Origin: an uncultured Haloferula sp.
Lineage (GTDB): Bacteria > Verrucomicrobiota > Verrucomicrobiia > Verrucomicrobiales > Akkermansiaceae
Reading direction: 5' to 3'
Assembly (NCBI GenBank): GCA_965652295.1
Contig: CBFGTS010000001.1
Span: forward strand, 544,001-608,000
DNA length: 64,000 bases
Positions within the stretch are counted from its first letter, which is position 1. The number at the start of each line of letters is the position of its first letter. Made by a program: the position numbers and the translations under genes. Below the pieces are notes generated by a model. It was not told the origin of the DNA and ran no database searches. It worked only from the letters and a program-made list of their open reading frames with translations. Of the stretch, positions 536 to 30,830 are shown piece after piece.

Positions 536-1180
536 TCACGCCCAGCTCCACGAACCCTGCCCCTCACCTGTGGCCAGAGCGAAACTGTAGGCCGCAAGGT
601 GCTGGATTTCAGGGCGATGAATGCGGAGCCCGGCGAACTCATCGAGCGTGCCCCGTGCCCGGTCGGCGAAGATGCGCACCGCGGTGGGTGGGTGAGTGAA
701 GCCGGTGCCGAGGCATTTGAGAACCGCCTCCTTCGCCGTCCAGATATCGATCAACCGCCGTCCCTTCTCGGAGTCCGGCTGTTCCTCCACCTCCGCGATT
801 TCCTCCGGATGGCAGAAGGCCTGCTCGCATCCGATGAGTTCGTCGCCCCGCCTCAGAGCCTCGAGGTCGACCCCTACGGGGCCGTCCCGGGAAACGGCCA
901 GCACGCCGTATCGGTCGGTGTGGGTCAGATTGAAGTGCAGCCGGGTTCCGTCGAGAAACGGCTTTCCTTCGGGAGTCGCGCGCCAGACCAGCTCGCGGGC
1001 GGGCAGTCCGGTGTGGGCTCCGAGGCATTGGCGGACCTGGGCCCGGAATGAGGACCATCGATTCCGATCCGCCTCGAAGACGAAACGGGCCGCTTGATTT
1101 CGTTCGGCGGGAGACAGCGCCTCCGACGCTTCCGCAGCAGTGAGGAGTCCGGGGTCGAGGAGGTGGAGCAGAACGGGCAC
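536..1180 (-). CDS. Sfp-type 4'-phosphopantetheinyl transferase
   Basis: Motifs GKP, FNLTHT, VGVDLE and WTAKEAVLKCLGTG; divergent from a PKS/NRPS carrying four carrier domains. Confidence 0.92.
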   Translation of the reverse strand: MPVLLHLLDPGLLTAAEASEALSPAERNQAARFVFEADRNRWSSFRAQVRQCLGAHTGLPARELVWRATPEGKPFLDGTRLHFNLTHTDRYGVLAVSRDGPVGVDLEALRRGDELIGCEQAFCHPEEIAEVEEQPDSEKGRRLIDIWTAKEAVLKCLGTGFTHPPTAVRIFADRARGTLDEFAGLRIHRPEIQHLAAYSFALATGEGQGSWSWA

Positions 1181-1432: not shown

Positions 1433-4400
1433 ATGTCCCACGCCCCCTTGGTTGCGGTGCGCCTTAGTGCCACCTTTACGGCCGATCCCATCGTCCCCGT
1501 CCTTTGCCGCTGGTTCGACTCATTCGGCCTCGGTATTCCGGTGGAGGTCACCCCGATGCAGCAGGTTTTGCAGCAGTTGCTCGATCCGGGCAGCGCGCTT
1601 TCCGGAAATCGCGGAGGCGTGAACATCCTGCTCATCCGGGGAAGTGATCTCGCCGTGGACCATGCGGCCCGCGCCCGCTCCGCCGCCCGTGAAGTCGGTG
1701 CCGCGCTGGCGGAGTCGGTTTCCCGCGATGGTATCCGCACGCTGGTCGTGCTGTGTCCCGTCCGGGATGGCGGCGAGGCGGAGGAGATCTTCCGCGACGA
1801 GCTGCGCGATCAGGTCGCCGAAGTCGCGGGGGCGGAGTTCTTCGACGGCGGCGAGGCTGCCGGCCTGTATGACGTCGGGGAAATCTTCGACTCCGAGGCC
1901 GAAGCCGCGGCGTCGCTGCCGTTCACCGAGCCGATGTTCACCGCCCTCGGGACCACCCTCGCCCGGAAGGTGATGGCCGGACTGCGGAAACCGATCAAGG
2001 TCATCGCCGTCGATGCCGATCACACGCTGTGGAACGGCGTGGTCGGGGAGGTTGGATCGCGCGGCGTGGAAATCAGTTCCGCTCGCCAAGCCTTCCAGCG
2101 CGGGTTGATCGATCTCGGCCGCCAAGGCTACCTGCTGTGCCTGGTTTCCAAAAACCATCCGGATGATGTCGAGGCGGTCTTCCGCGAGAATCCGGACATG
2201 GTCATTCCGCGTGATGCCTTCGTGGATGCCGTGGTGAACTGGGAACCGAAATCCGCCAATCTCCAGCGCCTCTCCACCGATCTGAACCTCGGCCTCGACG
2301 CGTTCCTTTTCCTCGACGACAGCCCGGCGGAGATCGCCGAAGTCGCGGCCAACGCACCCGCCGTGTTGGGAGTGCGCGTCCCGGAAAACGAGGATGAGCT
2401 GGCGGGTTTCCTCCGGCATCTGTGGGTGCTCGATGCCCACTCGGTCAGTGCCGAGGACGCCCAACGGACCGATTTTTATCACGACGAAGCGCGCCGTCGC
2501 GAGCTGCGCCAGCGCACGTCCAGCTACGAGGAATTCATCGCCGGGCTCGAACTGCGGATGGACATCGCGGCGCTCGATGATTCCAACCTTGCCCGTGCCA
2601 GCCAGCTGACGCGGCGCACGAACCAGTTCAACTCCTGCCCCCGCCCGCGCGACGAGGCCGAGCTGCGGGAAGGTTCCCGCGGGATGGTCGCGAGGCTCGT
2701 CGAGGTCAGCGACCGCTTCGGTGACTACGGTGCGGTGGGCCTGATGATTTTCCGCGAGGACGGCGGCCGCCTGTGGGCGGAAACCTTTCTCCTGAGCTGC
2801 CGCGCGCTGGGTAAGGGCGTCGAACAACGCATGCTTCGCTATCTCGGCGAGGTGGCTGGAGAGCTGCACCTCGATGAAATCGCGATCTGGTTCAGCGACA
2901 GCGGTCGCAACCAACCCGTCCGCGATTTCCTCGAAAGCCAGCCCGGCCGCTGGGAAGACGAGCTGCGGATCATCCCCGCCGCCGCGGCGCGCGAGTGCTC
3001 GCTGGTGCCTTCGGCCGTCTCCGCCCGGTCGCAGGCGGTCGTCGCCGGAGAGCCGGTCACCGACGCCGAACACATGGCCACCATCGCCCGCGAACTGCGC
3101 ACCGCCGCAGCCATCGCCGCCTGGATGGCCGAGCCGGTGAAATCCCGCCCTGAGATCTCCGAGCGCTTCGTTTCTCCGGAAGGCCCGGTGGAGGAAAAGA
3201 TCGCCGCCATCTGGGCCGGCGTGCTGAACCTCGACAAGGTCGGCCGCAAGGACCGGTTCGTCGATCTCGGTGGCAACTCGCTTCAGCTCGTCCGCGTGCA
3301 CGCGCAGGTCCAGCGGGAGTTCGGCAAACATTTCGAGCTCGTCCGCATGTTCGAGCACCCGACCGTTGAGGAGCAGTCGGAACTCGTCGCCGGTGCGAAA
3401 GCGACTACGGCAGATGTCGTAGAAACCGTTTCCGAAAGCTCGGAGAGCGACGCCCTGGCGATCATCGGCATGGCCGTCCGCCTGCCCGGCGCGAACACAC
3501 CCGAGGAGCTGTGGGAAAACCTACGCAACGGCGTGGAGTCGATCGAACGCTTCACCGCCGGCGACGAGGATGTGCCCGGCCCCGCCGACGACCCGGCCTT
3601 CGTCCGCGCCCGCGGGCTGCTCGCGCCCGAGTTGTACGAGGGCGTCGATGGCGGACTGTTCAGCATCCTGCCACGCGAGGCGGAGATCATCGACCCGCAG
3701 CAACGCGTCTTCCTCGAACTCTGCTGGGAAGCGCTCGAGCGCGGAGGCTACACGCCCGACGCCGCCGAGGCCCAGGGCGGTCGCACCGGCATCTACGCCG
3801 GCTGTTATTACGATACCTACCTGCCGCACCACATCCTGTCCGATCCCGAGTTGCACCGCCGCCATCTTTCCGAAGCGCAGGTCGGCGCGCTGCAGGTGGA
3901 GTTCGGAAATGACAAGGACCACCTCGCGACCCGCGTCGCCTTCAAGCTGAATCTCAAGGGCCCCAGCCTCACCGTCCAGACCGCCTGCTCCAGCTCGCTG
4001 GTCGCCGTTGGCCATGCGGCGATGTCGCTGCGCGCCGGCCATTGTGACATGGCGCTCGCCGGTGGCATCACCATCACCGTTCCGCAAAAGCGCGGCTACC
4101 ACCACGAGGAAGGCGGCATGCTTTCCCGCGACGGCCATTGCCGGCCCTTCGATGCCGACAGCTCCGGCACGGTGTTTTCCAACGGCGGTGGCGTGGTCCT
4201 GCTCAAGCGGCTCAAGGACGCCATCCGCGATGGCGACCACATCCATGCCGTGATCCGCGGCTACGGCCTCAATAATGACGGCGGCACCAAACACAGCTAC
4301 GCCGCGCCGAGCGTCGATGGCCAGGCGGACGCGATCCGCCGCGCCCATCTCGATGCCGGTGTCGACCCCCGCACCATCACCTACATCGAGGCTCACGGCA

Positions 4401-7400
4401 CCGCCACGCCGCTCGGGGACCCGATCGAAATCGCCGGCCTCACCGCCGCGTTCCGTCAAAGTACGGCGGACACCGGGTTTTGCGCCGTCGGTTCGCTCAA
4501 ATCGAACCTCGGTCACCTCGACACCGCCGCCGGTGTCTGCGGACTCATCAAGACCGCGCTTTCCCTCGAGCATGGCGAACTCCCTCCCGTGCTTCATTTC
4601 CAGACGCCGAACCCGCGCATCGACTGGGCCGGCTCGCCGTTCTTCGTCAACGACACGCTCCGGCCATGGCAACCCGCCGGGGGCGCACCGCGCCGCGCCG
4701 GTGTCAGCTCCTTCGGCGTCGGCGGCACCAATGCCCACGTGGTGCTCGAAGAAGCGCCGCGCGACGTCACGCCGCGCGAGGAACCGCAGGGTCCGCGCCT
4801 GTGGGTCCTCTCCGGACGTACGACTTCCGCCGTAGATGAACTCGCCGGGAGGCTCGCCGCCTTCGCAGAAGGTGGCCGCCGCGATTCCTTCGCCGCCGCC
4901 GCCCGCACCATGTCGCTCGGCCGCAAGGCCATGACCCAGCGCGCCGTCGTCGTCGCCCGCGATTGGGATTCGCTCGCCAGCACGCTGCGGGATGCCCGCC
5001 CCGCCGCGATCGAATCCGCCGCCAGCGCTCCCGGACTTGTCTGGATGTTCCCCGGTCAGGGGGCGCAGCACCCGGGCATGACAGCCGACCTTTATGCGGC
5101 CGAGGCGGACTACCGTGCCGACATCGATTTCTGTGCCGACAACCTCAAGCCGCTGCTCGGCGAAGACCTGCGCGACACGCTTTTCGCCGAGGACGGCGAC
5201 GCCGCCGAGCGACTCAAGCACACCGTGCTCGCGCAGCCCGCGATCTTCGTCGTCGAATGGGCGCTGGCCCGCCAGTGGGCGCGTTGGGGCGTGCTGCCGG
5301 AACTCATGATCGGCCACAGCGTCGGCGAGTTCACCGCCGCTTGCCTGGCCGGTGTGTTCTCGATCGAAGACGGCCTGAGGATCCTCGCCGCCCGCGGAAA
5401 GCTGATGGGCGGCATGCCCGGCGGCTCGATGCTCTCGGTCCGTCTTTCCGCCGAAAAGCTCCGTCCGCGTTTGCCGCAGGGCGTCGACCTTGCCGCCAGC
5501 AATGGACCCGACCTCTGCGTCGTCGCCGGTGAGCGCGATGCGGTCGCCGCCTTTGCCGCGCAGCTTGAGACGGGGGGCGTCAACGTCCGTGAACTCCATA
5601 CCTCGCATGCTTTCCACAGCTGGATGATGGATCCCGTCGTCGAGCGCTTCCGCAAGGTCATCGAGGGGGTGAAACTCCACACGCCGAAGATGGCGATTCT
5701 TTCCACGGTGACCGCCTCGCGCCTTACCGACGAGCAGGCGACTGATCCCGGATACTGGGCCTCGCACCTGCGCCACACCGTTGATTTCCACGGAGCCATC
5801 GCTGCCGCGGCCGGGGAAAAGGAAGGTCGCCTCTATCTGGAAGTGGGTCCCGGTCAAACGCTCACCACGCTTTCCCGCCAGACCGCCGGCCGCCTCGGAA
5901 AAGGCTACGTCGCCAGCTGCAATCACCCTGCCTCCGACGCGCCCGACCACGATCGGCTGCTGCTCGCCGCCGGCGAGCTCTGGGCCCATGGCGCGAAGAT
6001 CGATCTCGCCCGTTTCCACGCCGATGCACCGGCGCAACGCGTGCCACTGCCGACTTATCCCTTCCAACGCCGGCGCGCGTGGCTTGAGTGCCGCCTGCTC
6101 GATCGGCCGGTCGAGCGCCTCGCACCGCTGCCGCAATCCGGAACCGTGGCCGACATCGCGGAGGTCCCGGTCATCGCCGCCGCGAGCATGCTCGATCAGG
6201 TCAGGGAAGTGCTCGAAGGCCTTTCCGGCATCCCTGCGGAGGAAATGGAGCCGCGTTTCAGTTTCCTGGAGCTCGGATTCGATTCGCTGCTGCTCACCCA
6301 GGCCGCGCGGGAGCTCGGCAAGACCTTCGGCGTGCCGATCGCGTTCCGAGATCTGATGCAGAATTTCCCGACGCTCGCACAGCTCACCGCCCATCTGGAA
6401 AAGCACGCCGCGCCGGTTGCCCGGGCCGCCGCGCCGGCTCCGGCTACGGCATCTGTCGTAGTGACGCCACCGCAGGATGCCGCCGCTCCCGCCGACATGC
6501 TCGGCCGTGTGCGCGAGGTGCTGGAGGCGCTCTCCGGGATCCCGGCCGCAGAGATGGAGCCACGCTCCGGTTTCCTCGAACTCGGCTTCGACTCGCTGCT
6601 GCTCACCCAGGCCGCGCGAGAGCTCGGCAAGGCTTTCGGCGTGCCGATCGCCTTCCGCGACCTGATGCAGAGCTATCCGACGCTCGCCCAGTTGGTCGCT
6701 CACCTTGAAGCCAATGCGACTGCCGCGCCGTCCGCTCCGGTCGCCAAAGCGGCACCGGTTGCCGTTCCGGCCACCCCGGATCAGCCCGAGGAAGAGTCCG
6801 GAGTTTCCGGCCCGCGCACCCGCATCGACCGCACCCGCAGCGGAGACGAACTCACGCCGCCACAGCGCGCCCACCTCGAGCAACTCATCGCCGAATACTG
6901 CGAGAAGACCCGGACCTCGAAAGCCAAGACCCAGCAGTTCCGCAAGTGGCATGCCGACCCGCGCACGGTCAATGGCTTCAACCGGCTCTACAAGGAGATG
7001 GTCTATCAGATCGTCGCCACCCGCATGAAGGGCAGCCGGATGTGGGACGTGGATGGCAATGAATACATCGACATGGTCAACGGCTTCGGCCCGAACTTTC
7101 TCGGCCACGCGCCCGACTACGTCACCGAAGCCATCCAGGAAGCCCTGGCCACCGGTCTTGAGATCGGCCCGCAGTGCGAGACCGCCATGGAGTGCGCCAA
7201 GCTGTTCTGCGAGGTCACCGGGAACGATCGCGTCTGTTTCCTCAACACCGGCTCGGAAGCGGTGCAGGCGGCGATGCGGATCGCGCGGACGGTCACCGGC
7301 CGCGACAAGATCCTGGTCTTCGACAAGGACTACCACGGCAACTTCGACCCGGTCCTCGTCCGCTCCGTCGGCAAGGGCGCGCGCCGCCGCACGCTGCCGC

Positions 7401-10400
7401 TCGCGCCCGGAATTCCGGACAGCGCGGTGGGTGATGTGATCGTGGTGCCGTGGGGCAAACCCGAGGCGCTCGACATGATCCGCGAGATCGCCCACGAGCT
7501 GGCCGCCGTGCTCGTCGAACCGGTGCAGAGCCGCCAGCCGGAGCTGATTCCGATCGAGTTCGTCCACGAGGTGAAGAAGATCTCCGAGGAGAGCGGCTTC
7601 CTGCTGGTCTTCGACGAGGTCATCACCGGCATCCGCCAGGGACCGGGCGGTTCGCAGGACCTCTACGGCATCCGCGCCGACCTCGCGACCTACGGCAAGG
7701 TCTTCGGCGGCGGTGCCCTGCCGATCGGCATCATTGGTGGCAAGGCGAAGTACATGGACACCTTCGACGGCGGCCAGTGGCAGTATGGCGACGATTCCTT
7801 CCCGGAAAAGGAAGTCACTTTCTTCGCCGGCACCTTCGTCCGTCTGCCTCTCGCCATGGCCGCCTGCCGTGCGGTGCTGAAGCACGTCCAGGCCCAGCCG
7901 AAATCCTACTGGCAGGACATCGGTGCGCGCGCCGATCGCCTCGCCCGCACGGTGGACCGTATGTTCCGCGACCACGGGATCGACGTTCGCATGGTGAACT
8001 TCAACTCGCAGATGTATCTCCGCGTCGGCGAGAGCGAGAAGCACGGCAACCTGATCTACTATCATCTCCGTAAACGCGGGGTGTTCGCGATGGAGGGGCT
8101 GCCCTTCTACCTGACCGCGGCGCATACGGACGCCGATGTTGATTTCGTGATCAATGCCTTCCGCGAAACGATCGCCGCACTCCAGGACGGCGGCTTCTTC
8201 CCGCGGCTCTCCATTTCCACGGAAACCGAAGCGGCTCCCGGAGTGCGAGGGCCGTTCCCGATGACCGAGCCGATGTCCGAGCTCTGGCTCGCCTCACTGC
8301 TCGGTGAGGAGGCGAACCTTGCTTTCAACGAAATGCTCCAGCTCCGGCTGGAAGGAAGCATCGATCTCGCCGCCGTCCGGCGCGCCTTGCAGGACCTCGT
8401 GGATCGTCACGACGCACTCCGTCTCCGCGTGCCTTCGCAGGAGAGCCCGCAGTTCGTGGTCGATTCGCGGCAGGAGATTTGTCTGATTGAAAAGGACTTC
8501 CGCGGGCTGGCCGATGCCGAGCAGAGCCTCGTCGAGGCCGGCCTCGAACAACGTGAGACGCCCTTCGATCTTGCCCGTGGTCCACTCTTCCGGGTGGTGG
8601 TCGCCCGCCTGCGCGACGACCTCACGGTGCTTCAATTCGTCGCCCACCATCTTGCGGCCGATGGCTGGTCATTCGAGGTCCTGATGAAGGACTTCAAGGT
8701 CTGCTACGAAGCCCGCAAGGTCGGCATGAAGCCGATCCTCAAGGGAGCGCCGTCGATCGTCGACCGCGCGCTGCGCGAACACCAGCAGGGCGGGGGAGAC
8801 GAAGCCGCGCTGGACTGGTGGCGCGAACGCTTCGCCAGCGGCGTGATCGAGGCCGATCTGCCCCTCAATAAGCCCTATGGCGCGGAGCCGGTTTACCGTT
8901 CCGCGACCTGCGAACTGATGCTCGACCGCACCATCGCCGAGCGCATGAAGGAGCTCGCCCGCAAGTGCGGCGCGACGCTCAACAGCACGCTCCTGGGTGG
9001 CTTCGAGGCGCTCGTCCACAGGCTCACGGGACAGTCCGAGTTCGTCCTGACTTTCCCCTCCGCCGGGCAGATGAGCTCGAACGAGGAGGCCCTCGTCGGT
9101 CATTGCGTGAATTTCCTGCCGCTGCCCGCCGAGGTCGACCCCGAGGCCTCGTTCAAGCAAGTCGTCGCCAAGGCGTCGTCGAACCAGCTCGACGTCCTCG
9201 AGCACGGCGAGATCACCTACGGGCAGCTCCTGCGCGCGCTGAAGCTCGGTCGCGATGGCGGTCGCCGGCCGATGATGGAGATCATCTTCAACCTCGAGCC
9301 TTCCGGCGATCCCGGCTACATCGGCAACCTCCGCGCCAAGGTGGAAACCGTTCCGGCCCGCTACAGCAATTCCACGATCTTCCTCAATCTCATGATCATG
9401 CCGGACGGCCTGCTGCTGTCGTCCACCTACAACCGTGAGTTGATCGACGAGGGCACGATGATGGCCTGGCTCGAGTCCTTCCGGGAGCTGCTGCTTGATG
9501 CCGCCCAGGATCCGACCAAGCCGGTCGGTCTGCTCAACCTTCTCGGCTCCGAAGCCCGTGCCCGGATCGAATCGTGGAGCCAGGGAGGAAGTACGGTGCT
9601 TCCCGTAAGCGTGTCCGACCGCTTCCGGGAAACCGCCGAGACCCACGCCACGCGCACCGCCCTGGATTGGGACGGCGGCAGCATGAACTACCATGATCTT
9701 GCCGCCCGCGTGTCCGGTCTCGCCAACGAACTCATCGCCCGCGGCGTGCAGCCCGGCGACCGCGTGGGCATCCACCTCGAGCGGGGCCCGGAGTTGATCA
9801 TTTCCATCCTCGCCGTGCTTGAGGCTGGCGGCTGCTACGTGCCGGTGGATTCCGGCTTTCCCGCCGACCGCCGTCGCCAGGTCTTCAACCAATGCGATGT
9901 GCGCCTCGTGCTCACCTGCGGCGATGGCGATGGCTGCGCGACGCTCGATCCGTCGACGGTCGGTACCGGTCCGGCCGGGCCGGTCCGCCGCCGGCCGCAC
10001 GATCCGGCCTACGTCATGTTCACCTCCGGCACCACCGGGGTGCCAAAGGGTGTGGTGGTCCCGCATTCCGGCATCATTCGGCTGGTGACGAACACGAAAT
10101 ACTGCCAGTTCTCACCGGAGGAAACCTTCCTCCAGGCGGCGACTCCGGCCTTCGATGCCGCCACGTTCGAGATCTTCGGCCCGCTGCTCAATGGCGGCCG
10201 GCTCGTTCTCCTCAACCCCGGCGAAACCTCGCTGGCGGACATCGCCACCGCGATCCGCGACAAGGGGGTGAGCACCGTGTGGCTCACCGCGGGATTGTTC
10301 GAGCTGATGGTCGATGAGCACCTCGACGACCTCAAGGGTTTGCGCCAGCTCCTCGCCGGTGGCGACGTGCTTTCCGTGCTCCACGTGCAACGCGCCTATC

Positions 10401-12160
10401 GCGCGCTCAGCGGCACCCGGATCATCAACGGCTACGGGCCCACGGAGAACACCACCTTCACCACCACCCGCACGATTCAGGAAAGCGACCTCGGCGGGCG
10501 GGCTCTCCCGATCGGCTCACCGATTGCCGGCACCTTCGTCGAGATCGTCGATGGAAACGGCCGCCTGGTTCCCGTCGGCATGCCGGGCGAACTTCGGACA
10601 GGCGGCGCAGGTCTCGCACACGGCTACATCGGCCGCGACGACCTCACCAGCGAGCGCTTCGTCGAGACCCGCCGCGGCCCCGTCTATCGCACCGGCGACC
10701 TCTGCCGCTGGCGGCCCGATGGCAGCATCGCGTTTCTCGGCCGCAAGGACCATCAGGTGAAAGTGCGCGGATTCCGCATCGAGCTCGCCGAGATCGAGGC
10801 CTGCCTCCAGGCCTGCGAAGGCGTGCGTCAGTGCAAGGTGGCCGTCCGCGGTCAGGGTGCCGCCGGCAAACGCCTGCTCGCCTGGTATTCCGCGACGGAA
10901 GCGGTCTCCGAGGATCTCGTCTCCGCCTGGCTGGAGAAACGCCTGCCCACCTTCATGGTGCCGGACCGCGTGATGCGCCTCGATCTGCTGCCGGTGAACG
11001 CCAACGGCAAGATCGACCTCGCCGCGCTGCCGGAGCCCGGATCCGTGAGTGTGGCCACCGGCATGGTCGAGTTGCCCGAGGGCGAAACCGAAATCCGCCT
11101 CGCCGCGATCTGGCGGGACGTGCTCGGCATTCCTTCCGTCCACCGTCACGACGACTTCTTCGAACTCGGTGGAAACTCGCTCGGCGGGCTGCGCATGTTC
11201 GCCCGAATTCACCGTGAGTTCGGCGTAATGCTCCCGCTCGCCACCCTGCTCCGCGCCCGCTCAATCGCCGCGTTGGCCGTGGCCATCGAGGAGGCGCCTT
11301 CCGTTTCGGGAGCGACGGTCTCCACGGTGCCCGGCGATCATCTGGCGGTGATCCAGCCGGAAGGCTCGGCCGCGCCCTTGTGCGCGATCCATGGGGGCGA
11401 TGGAGGCATCCTGTTCTACCGCGAACTCGCCGAGCGCCTGCCGAAGGACCGGCCGTTCATCGCCATCGAATCGCCCGACCTCGGTCGCGACGAGGAGATC
11501 AAGATCGCCAGCATCGAGGAAACCGCCGCCCGCTACGTCGAGATGCTGCGCGCCGACCGTCCGGAAGGCCCCTATCTGCTGGCGGGCTACTCGTATGGCG
11601 GCGTGGTCGCCTACGAAATGGCGCGGCAGCTTGCCGATGCCGGCGAGGAGGTGCCGTTCCTGGGCGTCTTCGATACGATCAACCCCGCCGCGGCCGTGCG
11701 GCCGTATGCTCTGACGGAGCGCGTCTCCGTCTACTGGAACGCACGCCAGGATCTCTCCCTGGGTGAGAGGATCCTGAAGCTGGCCAACCGTTTCGCCGAA
11801 GGCGTGAACACGCATCTCCGGGTGAAATCCGAGTCCGCCGCGGCACATCGGAGCGCCCGGGCCGCCGCGCACTCCGAGCAGCGGGCGATTCTGCTGCGCG
11901 AGGCGCATGAAGCGGCGATGGATGCCTATCGCCCGGGCCATTTCCACGGCCGGATGCACGTCTTCCGCGCGACCGAGGTGAACGACAAGTTCGAGGTCCC
12001 GAGCGACTACGGCTGGGGCGAACTCGTCGATGATCTCCAGATCGTCGAGGTTCCCGGGGAACACCTGACCCTTTTCGACGATGGCAACGTTTCACCGCTG
12101 GCCGACCAGTTCAGCCGCTGTCTCAGCACGGCCCTCGGCCGTCGCCTCAACCGCCGATGA
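1433..12160 (+). CDS. Hybrid PKS/NRPS: FkbH-ACP-KS-AT-ACP-ACP-aminotransferase-C-A-PCP-TE
   Basis: FkbH HAD motif DADHTLW and LLSCR; ACP GGNSL; KS TACSSS/EAHGT/NLGH; AT GHSVG and HAFH; two ACPs LGFDSL; class III aminotransferase FDEVITG...TYGK; C domain HHLAADG; A domain FTSGTTGVPKG, NGYGPTE, YRTGD; PCP GGNSL; TE GYSYG and GEH. Confidence 0.95.
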   Translation: MSHAPLVAVRLSATFTADPIVPVLCRWFDSFGLGIPVEVTPMQQVLQQLLDPGSALSGNRGGVNILLIRGSDLAVDHAARARSAAREVGAALAESVSRDGIRTLVVLCPVRDGGEAEEIFRDELRDQVAEVAGAEFFDGGEAAGLYDVGEIFDSEAEAAASLPFTEPMFTALGTTLARKVMAGLRKPIKVIAVDADHTLWNGVVGEVGSRGVEISSARQAFQRGLIDLGRQGYLLCLVSKNHPDDVEAVFRENPDMVIPRDAFVDAVVNWEPKSANLQRLSTDLNLGLDAFLFLDDSPAEIAEVAANAPAVLGVRVPENEDELAGFLRHLWVLDAHSVSAEDAQRTDFYHDEARRRELRQRTSSYEEFIAGLELRMDIAALDDSNLARASQLTRRTNQFNSCPRPRDEAELREGSRGMVARLVEVSDRFGDYGAVGLMIFREDGGRLWAETFLLSCRALGKGVEQRMLRYLGEVAGELHLDEIAIWFSDSGRNQPVRDFLESQPGRWEDELRIIPAAAARECSLVPSAVSARSQAVVAGEPVTDAEHMATIARELRTAAAIAAWMAEPVKSRPEISERFVSPEGPVEEKIAAIWAGVLNLDKVGRKDRFVDLGGNSLQLVRVHAQVQREFGKHFELVRMFEHPTVEEQSELVAGAKATTADVVETVSESSESDALAIIGMAVRLPGANTPEELWENLRNGVESIERFTAGDEDVPGPADDPAFVRARGLLAPELYEGVDGGLFSILPREAEIIDPQQRVFLELCWEALERGGYTPDAAEAQGGRTGIYAGCYYDTYLPHHILSDPELHRRHLSEAQVGALQVEFGNDKDHLATRVAFKLNLKGPSLTVQTACSSSLVAVGHAAMSLRAGHCDMALAGGITITVPQKRGYHHEEGGMLSRDGHCRPFDADSSGTVFSNGGGVVLLKRLKDAIRDGDHIHAVIRGYGLNNDGGTKHSYAAPSVDGQADAIRRAHLDAGVDPRTITYIEAHGTATPLGDPIEIAGLTAAFRQSTADTGFCAVGSLKSNLGHLDTAAGVCGLIKTALSLEHGELPPVLHFQTPNPRIDWAGSPFFVNDTLRPWQPAGGAPRRAGVSSFGVGGTNAHVVLEEAPRDVTPREEPQGPRLWVLSGRTTSAVDELAGRLAAFAEGGRRDSFAAAARTMSLGRKAMTQRAVVVARDWDSLASTLRDARPAAIESAASAPGLVWMFPGQGAQHPGMTADLYAAEADYRADIDFCADNLKPLLGEDLRDTLFAEDGDAAERLKHTVLAQPAIFVVEWALARQWARWGVLPELMIGHSVGEFTAACLAGVFSIEDGLRILAARGKLMGGMPGGSMLSVRLSAEKLRPRLPQGVDLAASNGPDLCVVAGERDAVAAFAAQLETGGVNVRELHTSHAFHSWMMDPVVERFRKVIEGVKLHTPKMAILSTVTASRLTDEQATDPGYWASHLRHTVDFHGAIAAAAGEKEGRLYLEVGPGQTLTTLSRQTAGRLGKGYVASCNHPASDAPDHDRLLLAAGELWAHGAKIDLARFHADAPAQRVPLPTYPFQRRRAWLECRLLDRPVERLAPLPQSGTVADIAEVPVIAAASMLDQVREVLEGLSGIPAEEMEPRFSFLELGFDSLLLTQAARELGKTFGVPIAFRDLMQNFPTLAQLTAHLEKHAAPVARAAAPAPATASVVVTPPQDAAAPADMLGRVREVLEALSGIPAAEMEPRSGFLELGFDSLLLTQAARELGKAFGVPIAFRDLMQSYPTLAQLVAHLEANATAAPSAPVAKAAPVAVPATPDQPEEESGVSGPRTRIDRTRSGDELTPPQRAHLEQLIAEYCEKTRTSKAKTQQFRKWHADPRTVNGFNRLYKEMVYQIVATRMKGSRMWDVDGNEYIDMVNGFGPNFLGHAPDYVTEAIQEALATGLEIGPQCETAMECAKLFCEVTGNDRVCFLNTGSEAVQAAMRIARTVTGRDKILVFDKDYHGNFDPVLVRSVGKGARRRTLPLAPGIPDSAVGDVIVVPWGKPEALDMIREIAHELAAVLVEPVQSRQPELIPIEFVHEVKKISEESGFLLVFDEVITGIRQGPGGSQDLYGIRADLATYGKVFGGGALPIGIIGGKAKYMDTFDGGQWQYGDDSFPEKEVTFFAGTFVRLPLAMAACRAVLKHVQAQPKSYWQDIGARADRLARTVDRMFRDHGIDVRMVNFNSQMYLRVGESEKHGNLIYYHLRKRGVFAMEGLPFYLTAAHTDADVDFVINAFRETIAALQDGGFFPRLSISTETEAAPGVRGPFPMTEPMSELWLASLLGEEANLAFNEMLQLRLEGSIDLAAVRRALQDLVDRHDALRLRVPSQESPQFVVDSRQEICLIEKDFRGLADAEQSLVEAGLEQRETPFDLARGPLFRVVVARLRDDLTVLQFVAHHLAADGWSFEVLMKDFKVCYEARKVGMKPILKGAPSIVDRALREHQQGGGDEAALDWWRERFASGVIEADLPLNKPYGAEPVYRSATCELMLDRTIAERMKELARKCGATLNSTLLGGFEALVHRLTGQSEFVLTFPSAGQMSSNEEALVGHCVNFLPLPAEVDPEASFKQVVAKASSNQLDVLEHGEITYGQLLRALKLGRDGGRRPMMEIIFNLEPSGDPGYIGNLRAKVETVPARYSNSTIFLNLMIMPDGLLLSSTYNRELIDEGTMMAWLESFRELLLDAAQDPTKPVGLLNLLGSEARARIESWSQGGSTVLPVSVSDRFRETAETHATRTALDWDGGSMNYHDLAARVSGLANELIARGVQPGDRVGIHLERGPELIISILAVLEAGGCYVPVDSGFPADRRRQVFNQCDVRLVLTCGDGDGCATLDPSTVGTGPAGPVRRRPHDPAYVMFTSGTTGVPKGVVVPHSGIIRLVTNTKYCQFSPEETFLQAATPAFDAATFEIFGPLLNGGRLVLLNPGETSLADIATAIRDKGVSTVWLTAGLFELMVDEHLDDLKGLRQLLAGGDVLSVLHVQRAYRALSGTRIINGYGPTENTTFTTTRTIQESDLGGRALPIGSPIAGTFVEIVDGNGRLVPVGMPGELRTGGAGLAHGYIGRDDLTSERFVETRRGPVYRTGDLCRWRPDGSIAFLGRKDHQVKVRGFRIELAEIEACLQACEGVRQCKVAVRGQGAAGKRLLAWYSATEAVSEDLVSAWLEKRLPTFMVPDRVMRLDLLPVNANGKIDLAALPEPGSVSVATGMVELPEGETEIRLAAIWRDVLGIPSVHRHDDFFELGGNSLGGLRMFARIHREFGVMLPLATLLRARSIAALAVAIEEAPSVSGATVSTVPGDHLAVIQPEGSAAPLCAIHGGDGGILFYRELAERLPKDRPFIAIESPDLGRDEEIKIASIEETAARYVEMLRADRPEGPYLLAGYSYGGVVAYEMARQLADAGEEVPFLGVFDTINPAAAVRPYALTERVSVYWNARQDLSLGERILKLANRFAEGVNTHLRVKSESAAAHRSARAAAHSEQRAILLREAHEAAMDAYRPGHFHGRMHVFRATEVNDKFEVPSDYGWGELVDDLQIVEVPGEHLTLFDDGNVSPLADQFSRCLSTALGRRLNRR
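6188..6709 (+). repeat. Tandem duplicated ACP-coding segments (about 6188-6400 and 6497-6709)
   Basis: Near-identical units VREVLExLSGIPAxEMEPRxxFLELGFDSLLLTQAARELGKxFGVPIAFRDLMQxxPTLAQLxAHLE, offset by 309 bp and separated by an Ala/Pro linker. Confidence 0.9.
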
Positions 12161-12245: not shown

Positions 12246-13520
12246 GTGAAATATCTTCTTCCAACCCGATCCTCGCGGATTCCGGCGATGGTCGCCTGTC
12301 TGATGCTGACGGGCCTGACCGCGATGAGCCGTGCCCAGCAGGGGCTCGACGAACTGGTGGAATATCACCCCGTCCAGCGCGTCGAGGACTCACGCGTCGA
12401 CGCCGCCATGGGTGAAGCGATCTGGCTCCCGCCGCGGGAAATGGAGCTCGAACCCGAGCCGGTTGAGCAGGGTTGGAACATCGGCGTGCAGCTGGACGCT
12501 GCCTACAACGACAATATTTTTCTCAGCCGCTCGAACCCCGAGGCCGACGTGGTGATCCGCCTCACGCCGAAGGTGGAGTGGGTCCACGGCGTGGAGGGCG
12601 ACGAAGGCGCACATCTGGCGGTTGTTTACCGTCCGTCCGGCGTGGTCTATCTCGATCACGGTGGCGACAACCGGATCGATCACGAACTGACGGTCGCGGC
12701 GGGGTATGAGGGACCCCGGACCGGCGTCGTTTACCAAGGAGGCTTCCGCCGCCTCGGCGAACCGACGTCCGAGCTGGGCGGCATCCGGTCCGATCGCACC
12801 GAGTCCGCGAACGAGCTGCGACTGATCTGGAAGCCGAAGGAAAAGATCGGCGTGCAGGTGGCCGTCGGCCAAACGACGCGGGACTACGACGAACCGATCC
12901 TGGCGGGGTCCGAATCACTTTATCTTGAGGCGGCGCTGGAATATGCCTACTCGCCGAAGACTCGCTTCATCGCCGCCTATCGCAGCGGCAGGTTCGAGGT
13001 GGATCGCTCGCCGGAGCAAACCTTCGATCAGGCCACGTTGCAGATGGTATGGCAGCCGCGCGAGAAATGGACCGTGAGCCTGAAAGGTGGCGTGGAATGG
13101 CGCGACTACGCGCAGGGTGGGGATGCCTACGGGGTGTTCGACGCCCGTGTGGAATGGGCTGCACGCGCCGGCACCTCGCTGTTCGTTGCGGGCTACCGTC
13201 GTGAGGACGTTTCAGCGGTGTTCGCCGGGCAGAACATCGAAGTCACGGGTGTCAGCGCCGGTGTGCGGCAAAAGCTCGGCGAGCGCTGGACCGCCACGGT
13301 CGAGGCAGGCCTGGAGCAATCCGACTACAAGGTCGTCGCCGGGGCGGGTACGGCGGGCCGCAGTGACGAGGTGATCTTCGTCCGGCCGGCATTGCAGTAT
13401 TCGATCAGCGAGGATTTCCGGCTCGGCACGTATTATCGGTATGAAAGGAACGCGTCCACGGCCGCCGCGTTCGGTTACGACAATCACCAGATGGGAGTGG
13501 AACTTGAATATGAATTTTAA
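12246..13520 (+). CDS. Outer-membrane beta-barrel protein associated with exopolysaccharide export
   Basis: Signal peptide, YNDNIF motif, alternating beta-strand pattern, C-terminal ELEYEF; overlaps the start of the OPX gene. Alternative start ATG at 12288. Confidence 0.8.
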   Translation: MKYLLPTRSSRIPAMVACLMLTGLTAMSRAQQGLDELVEYHPVQRVEDSRVDAAMGEAIWLPPREMELEPEPVEQGWNIGVQLDAAYNDNIFLSRSNPEADVVIRLTPKVEWVHGVEGDEGAHLAVVYRPSGVVYLDHGGDNRIDHELTVAAGYEGPRTGVVYQGGFRRLGEPTSELGGIRSDRTESANELRLIWKPKEKIGVQVAVGQTTRDYDEPILAGSESLYLEAALEYAYSPKTRFIAAYRSGRFEVDRSPEQTFDQATLQMVWQPREKWTVSLKGGVEWRDYAQGGDAYGVFDARVEWAARAGTSLFVAGYRREDVSAVFAGQNIEVTGVSAGVRQKLGERWTATVEAGLEQSDYKVVAGAGTAGRSDEVIFVRPALQYSISEDFRLGTYYRYERNASTAAAFGYDNHQMGVELEYEF

Positions 13521-14085
13521 TCTGAAGCATCTCTGGCTGGGCTGCCTGCTGGCTCTCGGGGTCGGCCTGGTTCCGGCATCGGCCCAGGAAGCCTCGTCCG
13601 GCATCATCGGCAGCCGCGACAGCGTCGAAATCCGGGTTTTCCGCGAAGATGACCTGACCACCCGCGCCCAGCTCTCCGCCACCGGGGAGGTCGAAATGCC
13701 GCTGATCGGCGCGGTGAAAATCGCCGGTCTCACCACCAGCGAAGCCGGCCGCGTGATCGAGCGGAAGCTGCGCGATGGCTACCTCGTGAAGCCCGAGGTG
13801 AGCGTGGCGATCACCGGACGCGTCCGGAAAACCGTGACGGTGCTCGGTCAGGCGCAGAGACCGGGCGTGTTCCAGCTCGATCCGAACCGCGAGCTGACCA
13901 TCGTCGAGGCCATCGGTTTGGCGGGCGGCATGACGCGCATCGCCAACGCGAAGAAGATCACTCTCAAGCGCAAGGGCTCGGCGAAACCCTACCGGGTGGA
14001 CCTCCGCGCCATCACCTCGGGCGAGGCGAAGGACATCCCGCTGCGGGATGGCGACGTGATCACGATCCCTGAAAGCATGTTTTGA
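13510..14085 (+). CDS. Short polysaccharide export (OPX/Wza-like) protein, Poly_export + SLBB
   Basis: Motifs GEVEMPLIGAVKIAGLT, VTVLGQAQRPG and LRDGDVITIPE; Sec-type signal ending ASA; start moved to ATG 13510. Confidence 0.88.
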   Translation: MNFNLKHLWLGCLLALGVGLVPASAQEASSGIIGSRDSVEIRVFREDDLTTRAQLSATGEVEMPLIGAVKIAGLTTSEAGRVIERKLRDGYLVKPEVSVAITGRVRKTVTVLGQAQRPGVFQLDPNRELTIVEAIGLAGGMTRIANAKKITLKRKGSAKPYRVDLRAITSGEAKDIPLRDGDVITIPESMF

Positions 14086-14095: not shown

Positions 14096-16276
14096 ATGAA
14101 TCATCACCTATCACGAACGGAACCCCAGGTTTCCCCCGCCGCGCCCGGTCCGGCGGGTGGCGCGGATCCGACGTTTTTCCTGCCGAAAGTCGAGGTTTCC
14201 CGCGTCGCCGGGTTCCTGCGCCGCTGGGCATGGCTGCCGCTGGCGCTGGCCGTCCTCGGAGGGCTGGTCGGCTGGTTCATCGCCCAGCGGGCGACGAAGT
14301 ACTACGTCTCCCATGGATCGGTCTACGTCAGCACGGAGGCGCCCAGGATTTCCGAAATCCAGGCATCGACCACCGAGGAATCGCGCGATCTGGAGCAAAT
14401 GCAGTCGGTCGAGCAGGGCATGCTTTCCAACATGCTGCTGATGCAGGTGGCGGACCGGCTGGGTCTGGCCAAGGATCCGGGCTTCGCCCCGGAGGCGACC
14501 ACGGATCAGCAGAGGCTGGAGGTGCTCGCGGACCGCGTGGACGTGGCCCTGCGCCGCGGGACGCGACTGATCGATATCACCGTGGAAGACACCGACCCTG
14601 AGCGCGCCCGCCGGATCGCCGAGGCGGTGAAGCAGGAATACGAGTCGCTCAGCGCCGACCGTCAGGAGGTCATCCTGCAGGAGATGATTGCCGGCCTCGA
14701 CGTGGAGGAACGCCGGTTGCGGGCCAAGATGGAGGCATCGCAGCAGGCGGTGCGGGATTTCCGCGAGCAGCATCCGGAGCCGGGCCTCGATGGTCAGCCG
14801 GGCACGGGGAGCGCCCGCGATGAACTCTCGGTTCTGGGAGCGCAGCTCACCGAAGCGAAGACGGGGCGGATGAAGCTGGAGTCCGAGCGCGAGGCGTTCG
14901 CGCGCTTCGATCCCGAGGATCCGGATGCCCTTGCCGGCCTGCCGCAAAGCGAGACGGCGACCGAGGTGGCGGGGCTTCTGAGAGAGGTGCGCGCCAAGCA
15001 ACTCGACTTCGCCCGCGTCAAGGAACGCTATCTTTTCAAGCACCCCGAATACCAGCGCGCCGAGGCGGAGCTGACTGAAACCATGAGGAGCCTGAAGGCC
15101 GCGATGGTGACCGCCGGTGAAGCGATCGAAAAACGTTACCGGATCGCGCTGGAGAACGAGCAGAAGCTCGAGCGCGAGGTGGCCGCCGCCAAGACCCAGG
15201 CGGTGGATGTCGAGGGGATGCGGAGCGAGTTCGTCCGGCTCATGCGCCTGGCGGAGAACAATGTGGAACTCCACCAACAGGTTTCGCGGCAGTTGCGCGA
15301 GGCGAACCTCGCCGGCTCGGTGCCGGCCTCGGTGCTGAGTTGGCGCGATCAACCGACGGTGCCGGAGAAGCCGTCCCGTCCCCGCAAGGTCCTGATGGTC
15401 GGGCTGGGCTCGGTGCTGGCCTTCTTCTTCGGACTCGTCGCTGCGGTGGGCCTGGAGATGTCGGATCGGAAAGTCCGTGGTGCGGCCAGCGCGATGCGGG
15501 CGACCGGGGTTCCGATGTTGGGCCAGCTTCCGGCGGGCGATGGGCGCTCCGGGGCTGTGGTGCTTTCCGATCCCCGTTCGGCGTTGGCCGATGCTTTCCG
15601 CCGCCTCCGCGTGGTGCTTTCCCCGAGCCCGCAGAGCGGCCGGGTGCCATCGATTCTCTTCACCTCCGCCACCGCGGGGGAGGGAGCCTCCTTCTGTGCG
15701 GTGAACCATGCGGTCTCGCTCGCGTTGGAGGGCCATCGCACCTTGCTGATCGATGCCGATCTGCGGACTCCGGGCATCAGCCGCGAGCACCTGCGCGAGC
15801 GGGCCGGCCACCTCGGACTCGGCGGCTACCTCGAAGGACGGGCCACCGCTGCCGACGCCTGCGTCCGCACACCGGTCCCGGCGCTCTACCTCATTTCCTC
15901 CGGTGAAATGCGCGGGGATGCCTCCGAATTGCTGTCCCGCACCCGGCTTCCGGCCTTGCTGGAAGAGGCGGGCAGTTGGTTCGACCGCGTCGTCATCGAC
16001 GCTCCGGCCGTGCTCGGATCCAGCGACGCCCAGGTCGTCGCACGCAGCGCCGACCGGACCTGCCTGGTCGTCGGCGAGGCAGGCGCGAACCGCCGCGAGC
16101 TGCGCGAGGCGGCCAAACACCTTCGCGATGCCGGCGGCAATCTCGTCGGCTTCATCTGGAACGAGCATCCGGTTGGGCCCGGCGAGGCCCCTTCGCTGGC
16201 CGTCGCGCGGGAGGGAATCGCAGGTAATTCCCACGACGACTTGATTGTTTCTCCCCCTAACCGCACTTCATCTTGA
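14096..16276 (+). CDS. Wzc/GumC-like polysaccharide co-polymerase with BY-kinase-like domain
   Basis: Two TM segments flanking a coiled-coil region, YLFKHP and PEKPSRPRK motifs, C-terminal domain with TSATAGEGAS, LLIDADLR and VVIDAP. Confidence 0.88.
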   Translation: MNHHLSRTEPQVSPAAPGPAGGADPTFFLPKVEVSRVAGFLRRWAWLPLALAVLGGLVGWFIAQRATKYYVSHGSVYVSTEAPRISEIQASTTEESRDLEQMQSVEQGMLSNMLLMQVADRLGLAKDPGFAPEATTDQQRLEVLADRVDVALRRGTRLIDITVEDTDPERARRIAEAVKQEYESLSADRQEVILQEMIAGLDVEERRLRAKMEASQQAVRDFREQHPEPGLDGQPGTGSARDELSVLGAQLTEAKTGRMKLESEREAFARFDPEDPDALAGLPQSETATEVAGLLREVRAKQLDFARVKERYLFKHPEYQRAEAELTETMRSLKAAMVTAGEAIEKRYRIALENEQKLEREVAAAKTQAVDVEGMRSEFVRLMRLAENNVELHQQVSRQLREANLAGSVPASVLSWRDQPTVPEKPSRPRKVLMVGLGSVLAFFFGLVAAVGLEMSDRKVRGAASAMRATGVPMLGQLPAGDGRSGAVVLSDPRSALADAFRRLRVVLSPSPQSGRVPSILFTSATAGEGASFCAVNHAVSLALEGHRTLLIDADLRTPGISREHLRERAGHLGLGGYLEGRATAADACVRTPVPALYLISSGEMRGDASELLSRTRLPALLEEAGSWFDRVVIDAPAVLGSSDAQVVARSADRTCLVVGEAGANRRELREAAKHLRDAGGNLVGFIWNEHPVGPGEAPSLAVAREGIAGNSHDDLIVSPPNRTSS

Positions 16277-16366
16277 CATTTAAGACCTCTGCGCAATGAT
16301 GCGGGTCCCTCACCGCGTTTAGCGGCGCGTAGACCGCTCCCCAAGCTGTCCCCCCCACCCCCCAAA

Positions 16367-17866
16367 ATGAACCTCACGACACCCCCCCGGTCGTGCGAAT
16401 CTCCCGTTTCTACGGGAACCGCGCCTGAACGAAGGCAGCGTTTGTTTACGCTGCGTCACCGCCATCGTACTTGGATGGCGCACCAGAAACTGGTCGCCCT
16501 GAGTTTCCTCGGCGATTCCGCGATCGTTCTCTTCAGCCTGCTCTCGGCGTATTTGCTGCGATTCGAGACCAGCTTCCGCGAAGTGGGCGTGCTCGATCAT
16601 GCGATCGACATGCGCGACTACGCCGGCCACGTCATCCTGGGCGGCGTGCTGATGATCTTCCTGCTGGCGAATTTCCGCGCCCACGATCCCCGCAATTTCC
16701 TGGCGATCCGGCGTACGCTTTGCCTGGTTTTCAAGTCGGTCGCGATCTGGCTGGTGCTGTTCCTCGGCTTGGCGCTGCTTTTGAAAATCGAGCCGCCGAT
16801 CAGCCGGATGTATTGCATCATCGGCGCGTCGCTCGCGGTCGTTTCCCTGAGCCTCTGGCGTTGGGTGCTCTATTGCCTGCTGCGCCGTGAACCGATCGCC
16901 TCCGCGTTGCGGCAGAAGGTGGTGTTCGTGGGTTGGAATGAGGACTGTGAACGCGGTGCCGCCCGTTTCTCGGAAGGTCGGGCCCATGCGTTCCAGGTCC
17001 TCGGCCGGATCGCCACGGATCGCGATGAAGCGACCGTCGGTGACGTGCCGGTCCTCGGGGATTTCTCCGACGCCCGCCATCTGCTTCGCGAAACCGGAGC
17101 CGATGTGGTGATGGCCGTGGATGGTGCCCTCGATCGCGTCCAGATGATCGAACTGGCGGAGACCTGCGGCAAGGAGTTCATCGACTTCAAGCTGATGCCC
17201 AGTTGCTTTCAGGTGCTCGTCTCCGGTCTCCAGCTGGAAACCGTCCACGGGGTGCCGGTTCTCGGTGTCGGCCACCTGCCGCTGCACCACGCGATGAACA
17301 ACGCCGCGAAGCGCGTCACGGATGTGCTGGGTGCGCTCTTCGGGCTTCTTTTCTTCGCCCCGATCATGGCGATCTTCGCGGGCCTCGTTTATCTCGAAAG
17401 CCGCGGTCCGGTGATCTACCGTCAGCGCCGCATTGGCCTCAACGGCAAGCCTTTCGAAATCCTGAAAATCCGCAGCATGAAGCTCGATGCCGAGTCCGGC
17501 GGTGCTCCGGGTTGGACGGTTTCCGACGACCCGCGCCGTCTCAAGGTCGGAGCCATCATGCGCGCCTGGAACATCGATGAGCTGCCGCAGTTCTGGAACG
17601 TGCTGCGCGGCGAGATGAGTCTCGTCGGTCCGCGTCCGGAACGCCCGGAGCTGATCGAGGATTTCAAGGAGGACATCCGCTACTACAACGTCCGTCACAA
17701 CGTGAAGCCCGGCGTGACCGGCTGGGCCCAGGTCAACGGTCTGCGCGGGGACACCTGCCTGCGCGAGCGCGTGAAGTTCGACCTCGACTACATCGAGAAC
17801 TGGAACTTCTGGCTCGATGTCCAGATCATGTTCCTGACTTTCTTCAAGCGTAAGGGTGCCTGCTGA
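16367..17866 (+). CDS. Polyprenyl-phosphate sugar-1-phosphate transferase (WcaJ/WbaP-like priming enzyme)
   Basis: N-terminal TM helices, Rossmann-like middle region, C-terminal KIRSM, IDELPQFWNVLRGEMSLVGPRPE, KPGVTGWAQVNG and DLDYIENW. Confidence 0.93.
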   Translation: MNLTTPPRSCESPVSTGTAPERRQRLFTLRHRHRTWMAHQKLVALSFLGDSAIVLFSLLSAYLLRFETSFREVGVLDHAIDMRDYAGHVILGGVLMIFLLANFRAHDPRNFLAIRRTLCLVFKSVAIWLVLFLGLALLLKIEPPISRMYCIIGASLAVVSLSLWRWVLYCLLRREPIASALRQKVVFVGWNEDCERGAARFSEGRAHAFQVLGRIATDRDEATVGDVPVLGDFSDARHLLRETGADVVMAVDGALDRVQMIELAETCGKEFIDFKLMPSCFQVLVSGLQLETVHGVPVLGVGHLPLHHAMNNAAKRVTDVLGALFGLLFFAPIMAIFAGLVYLESRGPVIYRQRRIGLNGKPFEILKIRSMKLDAESGGAPGWTVSDDPRRLKVGAIMRAWNIDELPQFWNVLRGEMSLVGPRPERPELIEDFKEDIRYYNVRHNVKPGVTGWAQVNGLRGDTCLRERVKFDLDYIENWNFWLDVQIMFLTFFKRKGAC

Positions 17867-30669: not shown

Positions 30670-30753
30670 CGGCGTTTTTCATAAATGTGCATAAGCTGTC
30701 TTATCCAGTGAAAACTACACTGAGAGAGTTTTTGGGGGCTGAAAGACTTGTCT

Positions 30754-30830
30754 CCGGCCCGCCGCTGGACACACCGGAAGCCCACCGCGCCGCCGCCGAT
30801 CTCAAGCCCGCCTTCCCCGGGAAACGCTGA
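30754..30830 (+). repeat. 77-bp direct repeat, copy 2 (orphan sulfatase 3' end including stop codon)
   Basis: Encodes the same terminal residues GPPLDTPEAHRAAADLKPAFPGKR-stop; the two differences are TTT/TTC and CCG/CCC. Confidence 0.95.

Follow-up and report, generated by a model that had tools for sequence, protein, structure and literature searches.

Which compound is made by a synthetase that heads a set of polysaccharide-export genes, and what would that compound be for? The question is raised by a 64,000-nucleotide stretch of DNA, here called the window, from an uncultured Haloferula sp. (Verrucomicrobiota, Akkermansiaceae; GenBank assembly GCA_965652295.1, contig CBFGTS010000001.1, positions 544,001 to 608,000 of the forward strand), whose positions 1433..12160 (+ strand) form a single stop-free open reading frame (ORF) of 3575 amino acids (aa). 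It encodes a hybrid of polyketide synthase (PKS) and nonribosomal peptide synthetase (NRPS), for which precedent, domain by domain (MycA, the FkbH domains of the cystomanamide and vioprolide lines, the Val code of malacidin), predicts the product 3-amino-4,5-dihydroxypentanoyl-L-Val (C10H20N2O5, computed [M+H]+ 249.1445). That the line makes this compound, hydrolysed off as a free small molecule and expressed within a surface-matrix programme, has in our judgement about an even chance. The synthetase is likely co-regulated with the polysaccharide-export genes that it heads, and the job of the product most likely lies in the surface-matrix state (exopolysaccharide (EPS) and PEP-CTERM proteins, floc or biofilm).

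Domains of the synthetase and their precedents

The domain order is Nt-FkbH-ACP-KS-AT-ACP-ACP-AMT-C-A-PCP-TE (Nt, N-terminal extension; ACP and PCP, acyl and peptidyl carrier proteins; KS, ketosynthase; AT, acyltransferase; AMT, aminotransferase; C, condensation; A, adenylation; TE, thioesterase), and a gene for a phosphopantetheinyl transferase (PPTase) lies divergently beside it:

1433..12160, + strand: hybrid synthetase of 3575 aa (ORF, Pfam, NCBIfam, motifs)
1433..3007, + strand: N-terminal extension, HAD phosphatase and GNAT-fold part of FkbH (TIGR01686, fold model)
3161..3394, + strand: loading carrier domain (LGGNSL at aa 612-613; PF00550)
3455..5887, + strand: KS-AT didomain (Pfam, motifs)
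6185..6718, + strand: two tandem ACPs (LGFDSL at aa 1614-1615 and 1717-1718)
6890..8173, + strand: class III pyridoxal phosphate (PLP) aminotransferase of MycA type (PF00202; 6KFM match)
8285..11296, + strand: C-A-PCP module (Pfam, motifs, A code DAFWLGGTFK)
11375..12142, + strand: thioesterase with Ser-Asp-His motifs (PF00975)
536..1180, - strand: divergent Sfp/HetI-type PPTase (PF01648, PF22624)

Pfam families for KS, AT, four carrier domains, Aminotran_3, C, A and TE are found in the ORF, and ketoreductase (KR), dehydratase (DH), enoylreductase (ER), methyltransferase (MT), epimerization (E) and oxygenase families are absent from it in the same scan. The catalytic motifs are all present across the domains on inspection, with the carrier serine motifs at aa 612-613, 1614-1615, 1717-1718 and 3246; an initial annotation of this DNA, made from the letters alone, had likewise described the motifs as intact and KR, DH and ER as missing. 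It had passed over the tandem duplication of the ACP behind the AT, the copies of which are 82% identical in aa; the doubled ACP is restricted to a few close relatives, most others having a single one. Some depth from contigs of four further public DNA runs is present in 30 of 30 bins; these contigs are fragments, none of which covers the full stretch, and the only indel listed in them within the synthetase ORF is one insertion, in frame. The runs that contain synthetase DNA are rhizosphere, soil and sludge metagenomes, with no RNA run listed among them, and the nearest named proteins for the first 570 aa belong to Haloferula sargassicola (77%) and H. luteola (72%). For the PPTase the best NCBIfam model (NF042922) scores under its cut-off; the gene sits in the same place in 12 of the 14 FkbH-type relatives of the genus, wherever the flank is covered or not replaced. 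The MbtH family is absent from the genome in a family search.

The loading region matches the FkbH model TIGR01686 at 286.6 bits (NCBIfam cut-off 146.65) and carries the HAD motif DADHTLW (D194/D196), K240, DD295-296 and LSCR (C456); D194, D196, K240, D295, D296 and C456 are unchanged in all 16 homologues that were aligned. The model of aa 1-525 (pLDDT 90) matches BF1531 (3SLR), HAD phosphatases and GNAT folds, and for the N-terminal 185 aa the fold search names nothing beyond the BF1531 match. What was first annotated as FkbH is accordingly a full three-part domain with intact catalytic residues. It is 42% identical to a Cystobacter fuscus NRPS (AID65225.1, presumably CtmD) of the order C-FkbH-T-C-A-T, which is also the order given for cystomanamide modules 4-5 (PMC9581180). 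According to reviews, FkbH domains load and dephosphorylate 1,3-bisphosphoglycerate and replace an A domain in the cystomanamide and vioprolide lines (PMC8949500, PMC10099666). An FkbH that supplies an extender unit was considered for the present line and rejected, because oxidising partners and an alternative starter are both absent; from 1 to 25 kb, the genes of the window include no FabH-like enzyme, dehydrogenase or O-methyltransferase.

The KS shows the motifs TACSS-EAHGT-GH (signature GNDKD..VQTACSS) and the AT the motifs GHSVG and HAFH, the latter already pointed out in the initial annotation as a mark of malonyl specificity. Iterative action of the PKS is rejected by reasoning, because amination ends the logic of repeated beta-keto extension and a C domain comes next. 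The aminotransferase, placed in line as ACP-AMT-C, possesses FDEV (PLP aspartate) and YGK (PLP lysine), and its closest solved structure is MycA (6KFM, E 1.2e-119, whole domain covered), in agreement with the in-line function first assigned to it. The MycA aminotransferase aminates an ACP-bound beta-ketothioester with Gln as donor (PMC3870968). In the present synthetase the AMT is the best conserved domain (82-98% identity in 14 relatives), which argues that it is under selection. Its spacer to the C domain is only 40 aa long, so that no in-line oxygenase fits. Five other verrucomicrobial lines, in G328, G342, G288, G303 and G309, are longer by some 400-450 residues at this place, which would accommodate an in-line oxygenase. 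In relatives outside the genus and the EPS slot, the same architecture has beside it an amidase of the nitrilase family, whose nearest model, PRK10438, is matched under its cut-off; no such gene is found in this cluster. Such neighbours would suit removal of alpha-ketoglutaramate if Gln is the donor.

In the terminal module, the C domain has the motif HHLAADG, the A domain motifs A3-A10 and the TE GYSYG-D-GEH. The A code DAFWLGGTFK is reproduced when the GrsA positions are located with the help of motifs. The initial annotation had called it close to Val-type codes; a published table assigns exactly this code, in malacidin MlcM, to Val (PMC9113097), and the A domain is predicted from it to activate Val. 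Exact or related aliphatic codes occur in 37 of 41 homologues with FkbH, AMT and A (23 retain DAFWLGGTFK, 14 have variants), and the other four have Gly-type codes. The best solved matches of the TE are those of NocB and Pks13, of which NocB scores higher (Pks13 E 4e-19). Searches of the C domain and the TE against solved structures distinguish neither subtype nor release mode, be it as free acid, ring, oligomer or transfer product.

By precedent, FkbH would bring D-glyceryl from 1,3-bisphosphoglycerate onto the loading ACP with removal of the phosphate, KS-AT would add one malonyl unit to give 4,5-dihydroxy-3-oxopentanoyl-ACP, and the PLP domain, as in MycA, would turn C3 into an amine with Gln as the likely donor. 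The C domain would then join this amino acid unit to the predicted Val on the PCP, and hydrolysis of the chain by the TE is the default assumption. The initial annotation had arrived at the same structure, which stands as a well-founded prediction and, as an interpretation of the domains, is supported. It had overlooked the conserved association with polysaccharide export and the palindrome common to both.

A precedent exists for each domain; no description was found of a line that extends an unmodified glyceryl starter a single time and aminates it. MycA of the mycosubtilin and iturin lines (KS-ACP-AMT-C) likewise has an in-line aminotransferase of class III, which sits between ACP and C and converts beta-keto to beta-amino. 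MycA begins with a fatty acid and contributes to a cyclic heptapeptide, whereas the line described here has an FkbH glycerate starter, an AT in cis and a single following amino acid; it lacks both the fatty-acyl ligase starter and the multi-module peptide part of those synthetases, having one NRPS module. Cystomanamide (ctmA-D, Cystobacter fuscus), vioprolide and corramycin lines share the fused FkbH that puts glyceryl on a carrier, and cystomanamide also contains a 3-amino fatty acid (PMC8949500, PMC9581180, PMC10099666). In the cystomanamide and vioprolide lines the glycerate is internal, brought in by a C-FkbH-PCP module that follows a fatty-acyl start, whereas here FkbH is N-terminal before ACP-KS and its unit would become the backbone of a beta-amino acid. 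Microginin, bestatin and lapstatin have an N-terminal 3-amino acid joined to a hydrophobic residue, in microginin from a PKS plus aminotransferase; their 2-hydroxyl stems from an oxygenase behind the aminotransferase, which is not present here, in keeping with the short AMT-C gap. Tetronate and hydroxy- or methoxymalonyl pathways share the formation of glyceryl-ACP from 1,3-bisphosphoglycerate, with a free-standing FkbH in contrast to the fused one here.

Export genes, synthetase types and the palindrome

Past the stop of the synthetase by 85 nt and on the same strand starts a beta-barrel gene, with no terminator-like site found between the two, and this gene opens a run of export genes:

12246..13520, + strand: outer-membrane beta-barrel, EpsL/TIGR03016-like (PF10082; TIGR03014/03016 below cut-off)
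13441..14085, + strand: Wza/EpsE-like polysaccharide export protein (PF02563, SLBB)
14096..16276, + strand: Wzc-like polysaccharide co-polymerase (TIGR01005/01007)
16367..17866, + strand: WcaJ-like priming glycosyl-phosphate transferase (TIGR03025, 400 bits against a cut-off of 295)
17891..19237, + strand: Wzx-like flippase (PF01943; NF041503 below cut-off)

The run contains the OPX, co-polymerase, priming transferase and flippase of a Wzx/Wzy-type EPS system, and glycosyltransferases and a polymerase are absent from the locus and from the window. Glycosyltransferases, a Wzy-like membrane protein and an exosortase are encoded elsewhere in the genome, and the regions C1:38.7-42.3 kb and C17:61.9-63.2 kb of this genome (G000) contain orthologues of genes found next to Wzx/WcaJ in relatives. 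Wzx/Wzy EPS systems tied to PEP-CTERM/exosortase share the barrel, Wza, Wzc, priming transferase and flippase, whereas here a PKS-NRPS stands at the head and regulation would run through a TACG-N6-CGTA palindrome. In Proteobacteria, EPS/PEP-CTERM regulation has a sigma-54/PrsR arrangement.

The Wzc-like protein (14096-16276) has GEGAS in place of the GEGKS that is consensus in tyrosine kinases, and a C terminus without a tyrosine cluster, and may be kinase-dead. A sigma-70-like TTGACA-16-AATGAT at 16273-16300, directly ahead of wcaJ, is a possible internal promoter. Close to the exosortase are another priming transferase and a Wzy-like gene, and there is a second barrel-Wzc-Wza set on another contig (C15:28125-35106; C22:50-53 kb).

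With the AMT as query (E <= 1e-60), 28 of 34 same-genus genomes are matched, once each except for one match split over two contigs, and the identities fall into 14 genomes at 82-98% and 14 at 50-52%; compared were the loci of all 14 in the former group and of 12 of the 14 in the latter. The first group is the window's type (type 1), in which the FkbH start is seen in 12 of 14, two contigs starting inside the gene. Type 2 has the architecture A-PCP / KS-AT-ACP-AMT-C-A-MT-PCP / C-A-PCP-TE, and starts with the code DLKN(V/I)G(T/S)DIK, which is close to those listed for homoserine (PMC12283262); most of its middle modules carry a Gly code, and the code of the last module is Val-like. Type 3, with a Thr-code module, is found in another family. 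The three lineages are about 50% identical in the aminotransferase, and a FastTree tree puts the type-1 and type-2 AMTs in clades of their own. Class-wide, the AMT is matched in 19 of 301 genomes (E <= 1e-75) and in 0 of 31 of one large sister genus; the full architecture of the window occurs in 37 of 127 collected proteins, and FkbH precedes KS-AT-ACP-AMT in 16 of 80 loci of the genome collection, all from Verrucomicrobiota. A small hydroxylated starter appears to be the constant of the family, because FkbH-ACP and A-PCP starters (homoserine-type code, Thr code) interchange before one KS-AT-ACP-AMT core. Three proteins (P0003, P0011, P0012) are FkbH-started with a Gly-type module and without TE, their AMTs being 86-92% identical to that of the window; they are apparent recombinants of types 1 and 2.

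The export operon adjoins the synthetase in 13 of 14 type-1 and 11 of 12 type-2 same-genus loci, the two misses being contig ends, and stands beside three of four type-3 clusters in the other family; type 2 is oriented divergently from it. On a tree of barrel, Wza and N-terminal Wzc (28 rows, LG+G4 quick tree) the types change at least four times, and a single clade of type 2 is rejected (p-AU 8e-6). The synthetase thus behaves as an exchangeable cassette, since the types switch on the export tree though the AMT clades are separate. The six same-genus genomes without an AMT match are G006, G020, G012, G001, G022 and G002. Type-2-like genes are present in G006 and G020; in G012 only a methyltransferase remnant remains beside Wzc, the barrel, Wza and nearly all of the synthetase being gone together; and in G001 (98% complete) and G022 neither the synthetase nor this Wzc was found. 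The type-2-like protein of G006 (L037:3267-10679), in which the AT was not found and the aminotransferase is decayed (31%), still adjoins the export operon.

Upstream of the synthetase lies the predicted regulatory element:

1251-1264, no strand: 14-bp palindrome TACGGAATCGCGTG, likely regulator-binding site (predicted; score 17.6 bits, from a matrix that excludes this genome)

The family consensus is about TACGYGATCRCGTA, with the pattern TACG-N6-CGTA, and the matrix was built from 11 synthetase-upstream sites of other genomes. Matrix sites precede the barrel gene in 11 of 11 type-2 and 9 of 13 type-1 loci (shuffle p <= 0.005), in a partly circular test with mononucleotide shuffles, the consensus having first been read by eye from both sets; the same scan gives 0 of 3 for type-3 loci. 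In this genome, which did not contribute to training, 12 of the 12 best sites are intergenic although gene calls cover 86%, compared with 9 of 18 and 19 of 62 in lower score bands. At 17 of 21 barrel promoters the palindrome is followed by CTTGY after 21-22 nt; at 9 of 13 synthetase promoters the distance to CTTGT/CTTGY is 80-85 nt (82 nt in the window). A scan for the sigma-70 consensus at 1100-1500 found no promoter. The barrel gene of this genome has no palindrome of its own, and the export genes therefore likely rely on read-through from the synthetase promoter. The site at 1251-1264 could also serve the divergent PPTase.

Among the top sites, one stands far from the synthetase ahead of an operon of WcaI-like and TIGR03087-like glycosyltransferases and a GH39 protein; the opening gene of this operon shares 67% identity with one that adjoins Wzx in G012. 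Others precede a PEP-CTERM pair, the gene of a GlxA-like protein of 2385 aa and those of secreted unknown proteins. In five relatives the exact pattern gives 32 strand hits against 12 in the reversed control, a modest excess, and of 21 loci seven precede PEP-CTERM-type proteins, three the barrel and one another NRPS.

Compared with known kinds of hybrid line, what is new here is the exchangeable position before the EPS export genes and a palindrome shared with them. A search of the open-access literature, with subscription journals and supplements (PMC3870968 Table S1, PMC11427321 Fig. S3) outside its scope, found no paper on the cluster, product or palindrome; for Luteolibacter soli, antiSMASH classes alone are reported in the excerpt of PMC11427321. 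Most Haloferula and Luteolibacter genomes searched keep such a cluster, and no described product was found for it. With one gene, two modules, exact predicted masses and cultured carriers, it offers for these reasons an easy entry to verrucomicrobial secondary metabolism, and through the shared palindrome the regulator of EPS and PEP-CTERM genes could be approached experimentally in the phylum. The cultured carriers include Haloferula luteola, H. rosea and Luteolibacter pohnpeiensis, besides the EPS-unlinked Roseibacillus persicicus.

Product and role weighed

Several points weigh against the predicted compound and against its place in a surface-matrix programme. An FkbH loading module can be non-functional, as in OocJ (PMC4552970); A-code predictions confuse Val with Ile, Leu or Abu; 4,5-dihydroxy thioesters can, on chemical reasoning, lactonise off the ACP to tetronic acid or amino-lactone shunts; and a dedicated exporter is absent from the cluster. 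As to the neighbourhood, export genes do not adjoin the synthetase in Roseibacillus persicicus or in four type-1 genomes from other genera, the palindrome too is missing near these four type-1 loci, G060 has cluster and export operon on separate contigs with different neighbours, and in G002 (90% complete) the export operon is present and a matching KS was not found. Top palindrome sites also precede housekeeping-looking genes (thyA, hisG, a tRNA methyltransferase), and the PEP-CTERM enrichment in this genome is weak (3/79 against 20/3248 at 14 bits, p 0.016) and not significant at three other cut-offs.

With respect to structure, the building blocks might differ, with Ile, Leu or Abu for Val, a retained phosphate, another starter, or mostly shunts (5-hydroxymethyl-tetronic acid, amino-lactone). 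The variant aliphatic codes of 14 of the 41 homologues would fit, as would a literature search that gave no unmodified glyceryl starter KS-extended and then aminated, but the exact Val code has a published assignment, both HAD aspartates are invariant, the well-conserved aminotransferase is evidently under selection, and dehydrogenase, FabH-like and methyltransferase genes are absent from the cluster; we regard such a deviation as quite improbable. Release as a 1,4-diazepane-2,5-dione or lactone (C10H18N2O4, computed [M+H]+ 231.1339) or as a cyclic dimer (461.2606) has slender prospects too: the chain has internal nucleophiles, one free amine and two hydroxyls, and the TE triad is intact, whereas the closest solved TE, that of NocB, is a hydrolysing enzyme, and the same C-A-PCP-TE end terminates chains of different length in types 1-3, which is better suited to hydrolysis than to a single ring size.

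With respect to role, the TE would, on an account that we consider unlikely, transfer the amino-sugar-acyl-Val onto the exopolysaccharide, its lipid-linked repeat unit in the cytoplasm or another matrix component, the synthetases acting as a serotype-like cassette that alters how the surface is decorated. Each genome has one synthetase in one slot, with two mutually exclusive types swapped at least four times and a third lineage at the same operon in another family; the export genes here have lost their own site and trail the synthetase closely without a terminator-like site; no exporter for a free product is present; and the TE of Pks13, which presumably transfers its chain to a sugar, is among the closest solved ones. 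On the other hand, this likeness is weak and NocB outscores it, the same architecture lacks EPS neighbours in the four genomes and Roseibacillus persicicus, and no acyltransferase (MBOAT or Acyl_transf_3) is found at the locus; the four MBOAT genes of the genome have no palindrome within the 34 kb read around them, and two Acyl_transf_3 genes lie on other contigs with upstream regions not among the top-scoring palindrome sites. The MBOAT clusters were rejected as a transfer route, being without palindrome and unlinked to the synthetase. Three consecutive MBOAT and partner pairs amid methyl- and glycosyltransferase-like genes (G000:C4:54163-63191, L207) form a separate polysaccharide-acylation locus. 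A wider form, with similarly small prospects, holds that exchangeable cassettes of Haloferula and Luteolibacter build amino-sugar-acid-peptides that the TE transfers to exopolysaccharide, while one undescribed regulator that binds the palindrome also drives glycosyltransferases and PEP-CTERM genes; the unit of the other type would then be a homoserine-derived 3,4-diamino-6-hydroxyhexanoyl-Sar-Val. If the product did end on a polysaccharide, it would represent a new mode of bacterial surface decoration.

The neighbourhood might also be incidental, the slot being a recombination hot spot, the palindrome marking a broad stationary-phase or surface regulon, and the product (e.g. an antimetabolite or signal) being unrelated to polysaccharide; such a view bears on the role alone, and the predicted structure could hold alongside it. 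The mixed gene set under the top palindrome sites, the EPS-free copies in other genera, the palindrome at an unrelated second NRPS in G017 and its absence from all three type-3 loci speak for it. Against it, three lineages only about 50% alike in AMT share the position before orthologous export genes in two families, G012 has lost barrel, Wza and nearly all of the synthetase jointly, and the nearly complete G001 gave neither synthetase nor export Wzc. We consider an incidental neighbourhood somewhat doubtful.

Further features of the genome and the window

A second NRPS lies about 41 kb ahead of the window (G000:C1:497481-503222, L033) and contains two adenylating domains, the second with a Gly code, two carriers, a C domain and a TE; it is likely an N-acyl-glycine synthetase. 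Its G017 orthologue (56%) carries the palindrome, and the copy of this genome does not. Within the window, a tryptophan-halogenase-family gene (62073-63923, - strand) is located 50 kb from the synthetase, with no sign of belonging to it. Positions 53057-61973 hold a defence island of lower GC (0.57), in which type I restriction-modification genes enclose an ApeA-HEPN gene and DUF488. Two similar pairs of ECF sigma factor and Ser/Thr kinase (731 aa each) are found at 30748-33660 and 41549-44318, with PEP-CTERM genes near them at 29896-30669, 38144-38887 and 44343-45230.

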